Below are positions 59,445-61,375 of a stretch of 64,000 bases of DNA, in pieces. Location: the NCBI RefSeq assembly GCF_046105845.1, contig NZ_CP151004.1; one strand, 5' to 3'. A program made the position numbers and the translations under genes. Within the stretch, counting starts at the first letter, position 1. The number at the start of each line of letters is the position of its first letter. The notes under the pieces were generated by a model. The model saw only the letters and a list, made by a program, of their open reading frames with translations. It was not told the DNA's origin and did no database searches. Origin of the DNA: Escherichia coli. Lineage in GTDB: Bacteria > Pseudomonadota > Gammaproteobacteria > Enterobacterales > Enterobacteriaceae.

Positions 59445-61375
59445 ACTGCTGGGAAATATTAGGTTTACAACCTGGCGCGGAAGAACGAGATATTAAGCGT
59501 CGTTATGCGCAACTGGTAAAAAATTGCCGCCCGGAAGATTCTCCCGAAGCCTGGCAACAATTGCACGATGCTTATGAACAGGCTTTACGTTATGACGACG
59601 AAGATCAGTGGCAAGAAGAGGAAGAAGAGCAACCGATCAATATATCCAGGGGTATTGTTCATCCTCGTCCTGTGATGACATTTCGCGCACTCAACACCTT
59701 TTCTGGTCATCCACTTCCTGATGTCACTATTAAATCAGAGGAGGAATTCACCTGGCAAGCCGTGCTGGATATGCTCTGTGAGGAGAATGAAGCAACCCCC
59801 GAACACGCCCCCATGCAACTTGCTAAGGCGTTATCTTTCCTTGAGAAAAAAGATCTCAGCTCACGAATGAGCTTTGAAGAAGCGTTATTACTGCATCTTC
59901 ATCGGGTATTCCGGCCATTATTAACTCTCGCTGCTGCACAAACGTTCAGATGGCATTTAGTTGCAGGCAGTCGTCAACCCGTAATCCAGACAGAAATTAA
60001 CGAAAGTTGTCTTCTTTATTATCGCATCGAAAAAGAAATTACCACTTTCTTTGCCAGTAACTTGTCTCCACTGGAAGAAATGGAAAACGGGAAGGAAATG
60101 GCTACGATTTATCAATCATTAAAGGATAATGAAGAGAGCCTGAAATGGTTTGATATCGCAGTATTAAATAAAATTGCTGAATTTGAACTGTCAGACAACT
60201 ATATGGCATTGTTAATAGAGCGTTTATCATATTCCTGGCGAAAAGAAAAAATGATTCGCAAGTGGAAATTAACAGAACGCTTCAATAATTTAGCAATGCA
60301 ACATCATAGTGGATATAAAAAGTTACTAAACGCCATAAAATTAAAAGGTCTTTTTTATTATCCATCTTTTGTATTCCAGTCCTGCTTACATGCTGCAGAG
60401 CAAGACTATTCACTTGCCTGGTATTCTCTTGGCAAAATGTATTACGAAGGTGATGAGGTTTCACAGGATCTAAAATTAGCCTTTAATTGGTTTAGCCGTG
60501 CCGCGCAGCATAATGTTATCGATGCTCAGTATGCGCTGGGCATCATGTATAGCGATGGAAGGGGCACGGATAAGAATATTAGCGAGGCACGAAAATGGTT
60601 ATTACTTGCTGCCCAAAATGGCAACGCATCTGCGCAATATGAGCTTGCCCGTATCTCACGCTTTGCTGTTGAGCCATTACGAAATTATGAAGAAGCATTA
60701 CAGTGGTATTTATCTGCCGCCACACAAGGACATGAACTTGCCCAGTATGAATTGGGACAAATGTATATACAAGGGATTGGCGTGGAGCGCGATGAGGTAC
60801 AGGCCCATCGTTGGTTTTTGCAATCGGCGGAACAGGACCATTCAGACGCACAATATCATACTGCCAGCTTGTATAGTGAAAGTGAGAGTATTCCACAAAA
60901 CCAGGAAAAAGCGCAGTACTGGTTTACCAGAGCTGCAAAAAATGGTTCCGGGGATGCCATGTATGAATTGGGTAAATATTATTTAACCAACAATGATGAT
61001 CCTGAAAATAATGCTGAGGCTATTCAATGGCTTACTGGTGCAGCGCAGCGTGGGAAAATAAAGGCGATATTTTTGTTAGCCGAAATGTATCTCTACGGTA
61101 CAAAAGATGTCGCAAAAGATGAAAATCATGCGCTGCACTGGTACGAAAAAGCGGCGCGTTTAGGGGCAACCGAAGCGCAACACCAGACTGCGGCAATGTA
61201 TGCTCAGGGGACAGGCACTAAAATTGATAATAAACAAGCATGGATGTGGCTAACAATTGCCGGAAATAACAACCCTTGGATTGAAAAAGATGCGTTGCGA
61301 TGCTTAATGTCGGAACAGGATATTCAGGATGCAGAACAAACGGCTGCAAATTGCAAACGTCTGCTAAGGATTTAA
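59441..61375 (+). CDS. J-like-domain protein with acidic linker and C-terminal Sel1-like repeat array; putative co-chaperone or adaptor of the upstream Hsp70
   Basis: ATG overlaps the upstream TGA stop (ATGA) with GGGAG 8 nt upstream; N-terminus resembles J-domain helices I-III but has RPE where HPD is expected; about seven Sel1-type repeats in the C-terminal third. Confidence 0.75.
   Translation: MNCWEILGLQPGAEERDIKRRYAQLVKNCRPEDSPEAWQQLHDAYEQALRYDDEDQWQEEEEEQPINISRGIVHPRPVMTFRALNTFSGHPLPDVTIKSEEEFTWQAVLDMLCEENEATPEHAPMQLAKALSFLEKKDLSSRMSFEEALLLHLHRVFRPLLTLAAAQTFRWHLVAGSRQPVIQTEINESCLLYYRIEKEITTFFASNLSPLEEMENGKEMATIYQSLKDNEESLKWFDIAVLNKIAEFELSDNYMALLIERLSYSWRKEKMIRKWKLTERFNNLAMQHHSGYKKLLNAIKLKGLFYYPSFVFQSCLHAAEQDYSLAWYSLGKMYYEGDEVSQDLKLAFNWFSRAAQHNVIDAQYALGIMYSDGRGTDKNISEARKWLLLAAQNGNASAQYELARISRFAVEPLRNYEEALQWYLSAATQGHELAQYELGQMYIQGIGVERDEVQAHRWFLQSAEQDHSDAQYHTASLYSESESIPQNQEKAQYWFTRAAKNGSGDAMYELGKYYLTNNDDPENNAEAIQWLTGAAQRGKIKAIFLLAEMYLYGTKDVAKDENHALHWYEKAARLGATEAQHQTAAMYAQGTGTKIDNKQAWMWLTIAGNNNPWIEKDALRCLMSEQDIQDAEQTAANCKRLLRI

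Follow-up and report, generated by a model that had tools for sequence, protein, structure and literature searches.

A DjlB/DjlC-type J domain joined to a Sel1 repeat array behind an HscC-type Hsp70 in Escherichia coli

A two-gene module between topB and gdhA

A 64,000-nucleotide stretch of Escherichia coli DNA (contig NZ_CP151004.1 of assembly GCF_046105845.1, hereafter the window) carries, between topB and gdhA, two genes on the + strand which encode an Hsp70 of the HscC type and, directly after it, a protein that joins an N-terminal J domain to a C-terminal array of Sel1-like repeats (SLRs). We call the latter the J-Sel1 protein, and consider it probable that it is a soluble, cytoplasmic class-C J protein which serves as the dedicated targeting co-chaperone of the Hsp70 encoded just upstream of it. 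The names "J domain-containing protein" and "SEL1-like repeat protein" are already given to it by annotation pipelines; the repeats as such are thus no discovery, and the arguments presented here concern the combination of the repeats with the J domain, the partner gene and the evolutionary behavior of the pair.

The J-Sel1 gene occupies positions 59441–61375 (+ strand). An open reading frame (ORF) finder places its start further upstream, at 59426, which gives an ORF of 649 amino acids. However, in the family alignment all homologues with an intact N-terminus (13 out of 13) begin with M[NTS]CW[ED][IV]LG, and the RefSeq start of the homologue in E. coli 042 matches 59441, and for these reasons the start was set there, for a protein of 644 amino acids followed by the stop codon. 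The gene of the presumed partner Hsp70 (57744–59444, + strand, 566 amino acids, Pfam HSP70 E-value 1e-134) starts at the position which corresponds to the RefSeq start in E. coli 042. The ATG of the J-Sel1 gene overlaps the TGA of the Hsp70 gene by 4 nucleotides (ATGA, 59441–59444), and the two genes are translationally coupled through this overlap. A promoter and terminator scan of 57250–61500 returned nothing above shuffled expectation.

The Hsp70 is 44% identical to HscC from E. coli K-12 over its full length. Relative to DnaK, it has a deletion of approximately residues 76–100, one of 4 amino acids at the D211 loop (close to where the J domain binds) and one in helix B of the lid, as well as an 8-amino-acid insertion in loop L1,2 of the beta part of the substrate-binding domain and a short tail. 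A length of 550–580 amino acids and these same insertions and deletions relative to DnaK, the first deletion being placed at about residues 76–101, are described as typical of HscC (PMC8215388). Because it shares all of them, in addition to the 44% identity, we class the upstream Hsp70 as an HscC paralogue. An Hsp70 upstream of the J-like protein had been proposed in an earlier reading of the window, made from its letters and ORF translations (the sequence-only reading); it is indeed present, and it is of the HscC type.

Sel1 repeat array

The same reading had described about seven Sel1-type repeats over the C-terminal third of a J-like protein, at 60410–61375, and had quoted five repeat peptides as examples, all of which are found in the translation of the + strand ORF. 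The nature of the repeats is borne out by Pfam, by the helix pairs of the predicted structure and by structural matches to SLR proteins, while their number and extent have to be revised. A search with profile hidden Markov models (HMMs), suggested at the time as a check, gave eight matches to the Sel1 family (PF08238), located between residues 333 and 615 in the numbering of the 649-amino-acid ORF (328–610 from the true start). Six of them have i-Evalues ranging from 2.3e-9 to 2.8e-4, all below 1e-3, and the two weaker ones have i-Evalues of 0.0086 and 0.07. The second suggested check, structure prediction, gave a similar picture: an AlphaFold2 model built from a 14-sequence family alignment (mean predicted local distance difference test score, pLDDT, of 86.2, and mostly above 90 across the Sel1 region) contains a capping helix followed by eight helix-turn-helix pairs, i.e. 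confident helical repeats and not disorder.

Taking together PF08238, the AlphaFold2 helix pairs, their register and the SLR structural matches, the eight Sel1-like repeats span 60410–61276 (+ strand, residues 324–612). The starts of the units, set from the AlphaFold2 helix positions, are at 60410, 60518, 60626, 60734, 60842, 60950, 61058 and 61169 on the + strand (residues 324, 360, 396, 432, 468, 504, 540 and 577), with the last unit ending at 61276; successive units are 36 residues long, except for a single unit of 37. The array is preceded by an N-terminal capping helix or half-repeat (60368–60409, + strand, residues 310–323, ...CLHAAEQDY), in which the predicted helix 310–320 ends in AAxQ, a motif typical of the Sel1 B helix. 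There are therefore eight repeats and a half-repeat cap instead of about seven repeats, and they fill about 45%, nearly half, of the protein instead of a third. The array proper also ends before 61375, as the segment 61277–61375 (+ strand) encodes the C-terminal tail (residues 613–644), a 32-residue end with one long helix (AlphaFold2 helices 616–620 and 625–643), and the stop codon. Around this junction, the family members show partial conservation in the alignment columns of A600, W601, W603, S624, A631 and A635.

As in the Sel1 family, which is characterized by tandem units of 36–44 residues, each unit of the model forms an antiparallel helix pair and the units together form a superhelix. 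A Foldseek search against the PDB ranked EsiB first (4bwr, E-value 1.4e-17), followed by LceB (8sxq), SLR proteins from O. formigenes, LpnE (6deh), HcpC (1ouv) and SEL1L. By every test applied, the J-Sel1 protein is a Sel1-repeat protein. Tandem Repeats Finder detected no DNA-level tandem repeat in the array, and the Sel1 units are therefore old and diverged. Searching a library of 1.84 billion representatives with the whole protein gave 192,553 matches, which were swamped by unrelated Sel1 proteins, and very few of the representatives cover the N-terminal 330 residues.

J domain and its RPE triad

Pfam, BLASTP, hhalign and AlphaFold2 place a short three-helix J domain of the DjlB/DjlC type in the first 50 residues of the protein (59441–59590, + strand). 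The Pfam DnaJ match has an E-value of 2e-4 and aligns residues 8–51 (ORF numbering) with model positions 2–51 of 63. The identity of the domain to its counterparts in E. coli DjlB and DjlC is 34–35%, hhalign against DjlB gives a probability of 97% (E-value 5e-11), and the AlphaFold2 helices cover residues 3–7, 15–26 and 35–49, with helix IV absent. The features that mark the DjlB/DjlC type, an M-x-C-W-x-I-L-type J domain with E or D after the proline and a gene beside that of an HscC-type Hsp70, are all found. What had been called a J-like domain thus turns out to be a genuine J domain of this type, with one departure: the canonical His-Pro-Asp (HPD) triad of J proteins is lacking, and is replaced by RPE (R30-P31-E32, 59528–59536, + strand). 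In the alignment of the 14 family members, P31 and E32 are invariant and R30 is nearly so; the family member from E. whittamii carries HPE. DjlB and DjlC have HPE as well (PMC10410713), and HPE is treated as the one tolerated variant of HPD (PMC10410713, PMC13254874).

A scan for the N-terminal motif in one genome per species gave 65 loci, 28 of which have an HscC-like Hsp70 gene (product 33–77% identical) whose end lies immediately upstream of the J gene. Among J proteins encoded directly after an HscC-like Hsp70 gene, 18 have the triad RPD or RPE, and 11 others have HPE. The carriers of RPD or RPE include Pseudomonas, Leucothrix, Actinobacillus and Duganella in addition to the Escherichia and Klebsiella family members, and RPD is the triad of the J proteins encoded in HscC-type operons, those of Pseudomonas among them. 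At the loci behind HscC-like Hsp70 genes, the proteobacterial triad is RPD or RPE, while that of Firmicutes is HPE, or occasionally NPE or IPD. R/H-P-D/E is thus found in many different bacteria in J proteins encoded behind an HscC-like Hsp70, and the arginine in place of histidine is therefore a maintained trait of a clade of HscC-partner J domains and not a sign of decay. Among these loci, no similarity to the J-Sel1 protein beyond the J domain was found by BLAST, HMM or phmmer, and a Pfam scan of two representative J proteins recognized no domain after the J domain. As the regions which follow it differ among the loci, the J domain acts as a portable module. No Sel1 repeats were found among the scanned HscC-like loci outside Klebsiella.

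The unusual triad raises the possibility that the J-like domain is inactive for want of the HPD histidine, in which case the J-Sel1 protein would either work as a Sel1 scaffold without the Hsp70 or inhibit the Hsp70 by competition. The presence of RPE in place of HPD and the partial, modest Pfam match would agree with this, as would the loss of function which reviews report for J proteins with substitutions of the HPD histidine (PMC13254874). On the other hand, conservation within the J-Sel1 protein is highest around the triad, and R-P-D/E recurs in distant genera, in each case in a J protein encoded immediately after an HscC-type Hsp70, which argues for a maintained functional contact between the two proteins. 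We therefore regard an inactive J domain as quite unlikely.

Only two Hsp70 alignment columns separate the partners of R-type from those of H-type J triads. They correspond to DnaK 381 and 386 (L344 and L351 in the Hsp70 of the window), just before the interdomain linker, and hold L with R-type triads in all cases and I, V or M with H-type ones. These columns were considered as evidence of co-variation and dropped, as the change is conservative and confounded by phylogeny.

Linker, middle domain and cellular location

The J domain is followed by a predicted acidic, disordered linker (59591–59743, + strand, residues 51–101), as judged from pLDDT, composition and conservation. Residues 54–101 have pLDDT values below 50, the linker contains 12 D/E vs 4 K/R, and its identity to distant family members (Klebsiella, E. 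fergusonii) is 6–21%. It leads into a family-specific, all-helical middle domain (59744–60367, + strand, residues 102–309), for which the AlphaFold2 prediction is confident. The sequence-only reading had recognized no motif in this middle region, and the searches agree with it: there is no Pfam match, and no fold relatives were found outside the protein's own Escherichia/Klebsiella family. A profile search with the N-terminal 312 residues, together with the scan of species-representative genomes, found the middle domain in Escherichia and Klebsiella only, the other matches consisting of the J domain alone. Kinship of the middle domain with DUF1266 (YnjI, YbeU) or with the body of DjlB or DjlC was considered and rejected (hhalign below 1%, HMM E-values above 0.1).

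The J domain begins with the first residue of the protein and thus leaves no room for a signal peptide; nor is there a transmembrane segment, as the Kyte-Doolittle mean over 19 residues peaks at 1.2. Because it has neither a signal peptide nor a hydrophobic segment, the J-Sel1 protein is predicted to be cytoplasmic. This prediction bears on the structural matches listed above. EsiB, LpnE and HcpC are exported or host-directed, and a secreted or periplasmic virulence or host-interaction factor of the same kind could be imagined for J-Sel1. The repeat type and the superhelical fold are shared with EsiB/c5321, LpnE, LceB and HcpC (Foldseek E-values from 1e-17 to 2e-9, target TM-score up to 0.84), the best structural match is EsiB, and Klebsiella homologues bear the automatically assigned UniProt name "Secretory immunoglobulin A-binding protein EsiB". 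However, the identity to these proteins is 22–32% (only 26% for EsiB), none of them aligns with the J domain or the middle domain, and the gene is coupled to that of a cytoplasmic ATPase. With its N-terminal J domain and without a signal peptide or a hydrophobic segment, the protein does not class as exported. An exported, EsiB-like role is thus highly improbable, and can be taken as essentially excluded by the sequence features just named, namely the J domain at the N-terminus and the lack of a signal sequence.

Evolutionary pattern of the pair

Comparing the window with E. fergusonii, the amino acid identity of the flanking proteins is 99% (SelD), 97% (TopB) and 94% (GdhA), while within the pair it is 86% for the Hsp70 and 41% for the whole J-Sel1 protein. 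Inside the latter, it amounts to 75% for the J domain, 48% for the middle domain and 34% for the Sel1 region, so change concentrates in the presumed binding part. The dN/dS ratios against E. coli 042 are 0.29 for J-Sel1 and 0.20 for the Hsp70, vs 0.02–0.03 for the flanking genes. A ratio of about 0.3 indicates that the J-Sel1 gene is constrained by purifying selection, much more loosely than its neighbors, and that it is no pseudogene. The dS of J-Sel1 against E. fergusonii is 1.7, far above the 0.23–0.28 obtained for selD and topB, which points to old alleles being exchanged at a fixed site and not to simple vertical divergence. In the same comparison gdhA, on the other side of the insert from selD and topB, has a dS of 1.2, which suggests that there is a recombination boundary or that gdhA is present as a divergent allele in linkage with the variable locus. 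Within E. coli, the best identity to the 5.1 kb segment 56800–61900 among 5426 complete genomes is about 97%, and the J-Sel1 protein of the window is 94% identical to the common E. coli allele. The window thus seems to derive from an Escherichia lineage that lies somewhat beyond the complete genomes sampled.

The unequal divergence of the two partners is relevant to a reading in which the Sel1 array binds the Hsp70 itself, for instance at its C-terminal tail, and has a scaffolding or regulatory part in the chaperone cycle instead of presenting clients, in the way co-chaperones with tetratricopeptide repeats (TPRs) bind the EEVD tail of eukaryotic Hsp70 and Hsp90. Short peptides in an extended form are common ligands of TPR and Sel1 solenoids, and the tail of the Hsp70 is conserved within the clade (L-D-x-L-E-x-E/D-R-L-Q/L). 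A similar tail (...LDELERSPWQ) is however present in an aligned Pseudomonas Hsp70 whose J protein has no Sel1 repeats, and an identity of 34% in the Sel1 region, when the Hsp70 retains 86%, is unexpected for an interface with a conserved tail. Binding of the Hsp70 by the array is for these reasons unlikely in our view, and we prefer a role of the array in targeting other proteins to the Hsp70.

Distribution and polymorphism at the site

Full-length relatives of the J-Sel1 protein are found in Escherichia and Klebsiella only (657–823 amino acids, 37–41% identical). The longer ones carry more repeats, and family members have between 8 and about 13 of them. The Hsp70/J-Sel1 pairs of K. oxytoca and of E. 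fergusonii also lie between topB and gdhA, with genes overlapping by 4 nucleotides. Klebsiella spallanzanii has two tandem J-Sel1 genes (669 and 822 amino acids) after the Hsp70 gene and before gdhA (positions 3267–9469 of the stretch examined), and three family members from K. huaxiensis are present in AFDB. E. fergusonii has an extra ORF of 266 amino acids between topB and the Hsp70 gene (positions 5434–6234 of its stretch), with no Pfam match and a weak 45-residue BLAST match (E-value 0.003) to the C-terminus of YnjI.

The Hsp70 is encoded in 365 of the 5426 complete E. coli genomes, among them 042 and Nissle 1917, and always as a single chromosomal copy. The topB-gdhA site occurs in three states in this species, containing either the Hsp70/J-Sel1 pair, ynjI or nothing; in K-12 it is occupied by ynjI (Pfam DUF1266, E-value 2.9e-25). 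Truncated J-Sel1 entries are common in E. coli (273–539 amino acids, some with dozens of members), and there is a fragment in Shigella boydii, which indicates recurrent gene decay in some lineages. No full-length plasmid copy of the pair was found, and there is no integrase at the locus, which lies between housekeeping genes. An origin from a mobile element, phage or plasmid was considered and rejected, as there is no plasmid copy, the PHROG matches are generic to Sel1 and Hsp70, and PADLOC returned nothing meaningful.

Such a pattern could also be expected if the pair were a conflict module which senses or neutralizes phage, toxin or foreign proteins, with the fast-evolving Sel1 and helical parts as its recognition surface. 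This would account for the presence/absence polymorphism and the alternative contents at the same site, the very deep divergence of alleles at a syntenic position, the tandem J-Sel1 paralogues in Klebsiella and the frequency of truncated alleles. The G+C content of the two genes is also low, 37–47% vs 54–56% in topB. The pair contains, however, no effector and no nuclease or toxin domain, and it does not qualify under PADLOC-DB, the matches being a local one to the Sel1-like N-terminal part of PtuA (no domain above threshold) and one to PDC-M61B (E-value 8e-4). The housekeeping flanks, with neither an integrase nor a plasmid copy, and the dN/dS of about 0.3, with no gene-wide signal of positive selection, are not what this explanation would predict either, and we hold it to be improbable.

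As for the surroundings of the pair, the last part of the window belongs to the enterobacterial core chromosome, with ydjA, selD, topB (55296–57299), the two + strand genes and gdhA (– strand, 61431–62774), which is the order given by RefSeq around topB-gdhA in E. coli 042. The spacer between topB and the Hsp70 gene (57300–57743) contains a repeat of the enterobacterial repetitive intergenic consensus/intergenic repeat unit (ERIC/IRU) type. The sequence of the ERIC1R primer matches at 57501–57522 with one mismatch, when no match is expected by chance. This repeat probably explains several hundred partial matches of 80–95% in E. coli genomes which do not have the two genes. Elsewhere in the window, at 28781–35404 on the – strand, there are ORFs of 556, 491, 427 and 644 amino acids which, as read from their translations, are the ordinary yeaJ/yeaI (GGDEF), yeaH and yeaG; that two of them (556 and 644 amino acids) have lengths like those of HscC and J-Sel1 is a coincidence, and the genes are unrelated.

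Comparison with known systems

The J-Sel1 protein resembles DjlB (YbeS) and DjlC (YbeV) in its short N-terminal J domain, with about 35% identity and E at the third position of the triad, and in being encoded beside an HscC-type Hsp70. It differs from them in having RPE where they have HPE. Their C-terminal regions carry no Sel1 repeats and bear no similarity to the J-Sel1 middle domain, and it is DUF1266 and J genes that are coupled in K-12, whereas Hsp70 and J genes are coupled at the J-Sel1 locus. No homology to DjlB or DjlC was found beyond residues 1–68 with BLASTP, hhalign or HMMs, and because the similarity does not extend past the J domain, J-Sel1 is not an orthologue of either protein.

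DNAJC7 (TPR2) and DNAJC3 (p58IPK) similarly combine a J domain with a TPR-like solenoid which binds partners or clients for Hsp70, an analogy which holds at the level of the fold class only. Their J domain is C-terminal, their repeats are classical 34-residue TPRs and their triad is the canonical HPD. DnaJ-TPR is one of the 11 named architecture classes of J proteins, to which a catch-all "other" class is added (PMC10410713).

YbeQ is 34–36% identical to the Sel1 part over about 280 residues, and is encoded in an HscC/J-protein neighborhood; in the residues inspected, nothing obviously resembles an N-terminal signal sequence or a hydrophobic segment. Unlike J-Sel1, it is a stand-alone protein (325 amino acids), and the two arrays need not share an ancestor, since unrelated Sel1 proteins are as similar. 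At the K-12 hscC locus, separate Sel1 genes (ybeQ, ybeT) and DUF1266 genes (ybeR, ybeU) are interleaved with djlB and djlC, and ybeR and ybeU, of the same family as ynjI, are translationally coupled to djlB and djlC. A Bacillota metagenome-assembled genome has in a row (positions 5166–11280 of the stretch examined) genes for an HscC-like Hsp70, a J protein of 1211 amino acids with HPE, and a DUF1266 protein, which is an independent recurrence of the association between Hsp70, J protein and DUF1266, far from the Enterobacteriaceae. The J-Sel1 fusion, the presence of ynjI at the same site, the gene set of the K-12 hscC locus and the Bacillota row together suggest a functional place for Sel1 and DUF1266 proteins within HscC systems. 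A bolder version of this, which we think has little likelihood, would take the J-Sel1 fusion as a "Rosetta stone": the Sel1 proteins YbeQ and YbeT and the DUF1266 proteins YbeR, YbeU and YnjI would be active components of chaperone machines of the HscC type, the fast-diverging helical and Sel1 parts would recognize variable, possibly foreign (phage or toxin) proteins, and the topB-gdhA pair would be a chaperone-based module for surveillance or neutralization and no housekeeping folding aid.

Proposed mechanism and implications

As a dedicated targeting co-chaperone, the J-Sel1 protein would dock with its RPE J domain on the ATP-bound Hsp70 and trigger ATP hydrolysis, by analogy with DjlB and DjlC, which are J proteins that interact with HscC (PMC8215388, PMC13254874 and PMC10410713, citing Kluck 2002) and are reported to act on it in this way (as cited in PMC8215388). 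The helical domain and the Sel1 superhelix would bind one or a few specific proteins, as may be expected from the general behavior of solenoids, and the flexible linker would let the bound protein reach the substrate-binding domain of the Hsp70, where it would be trapped, remodelled or held. The hand-over of a client by the Sel1 array, a role already suggested by the sequence-only reading, is presumed from the general behavior of J proteins and of Sel1/TPR solenoids. Specificity residing in the helical and Sel1 parts fits the fast evolution of these parts, the conserved J domain and Hsp70, and the variable number of repeats.

A number of points weigh against this mechanism. No client of the J-Sel1 protein was identified by the analyses, and the identity of its Sel1 part to YbeQ (34–36%) is no higher than that to unrelated Sel1 proteins. 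Changes of H33 in DnaJ abolish the stimulation of the ATPase (PMC13254874), and because the first residue of the J-Sel1 triad is R, such stimulation by J-Sel1 is an assumption. Sel1 genes were found near HscC-like Hsp70 genes in none of the 27 other loci outside the Enterobacteriaceae (0/27), so the link between Sel1 and HscC-like Hsp70 is lineage-specific. Literature searches on the architecture and the locus tags gave nothing specific to the J-Sel1 protein or to the bacterial architecture, and neither experimental data on the protein nor a paper mentioning it.

With the J-Sel1 protein taken as the probable targeting co-chaperone of its Hsp70, the locus unites in one polypeptide a Sel1 array and a J domain of the DjlB/DjlC type, behind an HscC paralogue. 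What is new would be the make-up of this HscC-type co-chaperone, in which the triad is RPE, the helical domain is an orphan and the Sel1 array is part of the same chain. The first position of HPD, regarded as "invariant", is R, H, N or I in the J domains of HscC partners, which bears on the way in which J domains trigger Hsp70. For HscC itself, a 2021 review lists only sensitivity to cadmium and UV (from 2002), with the mechanism unknown (PMC8215388). The locus offers the testable hypothesis that HscC-type chaperones have Sel1 and DUF1266 proteins as their functional partners. With only two genes, present in tractable strains (042 and Nissle 1917), it also offers a compact system in which the clients of an HscC-type chaperone may be searched for. 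While there is no mechanistic surprise as yet, such a coherent two-gene chaperone module makes the question of the function of HscC more approachable.

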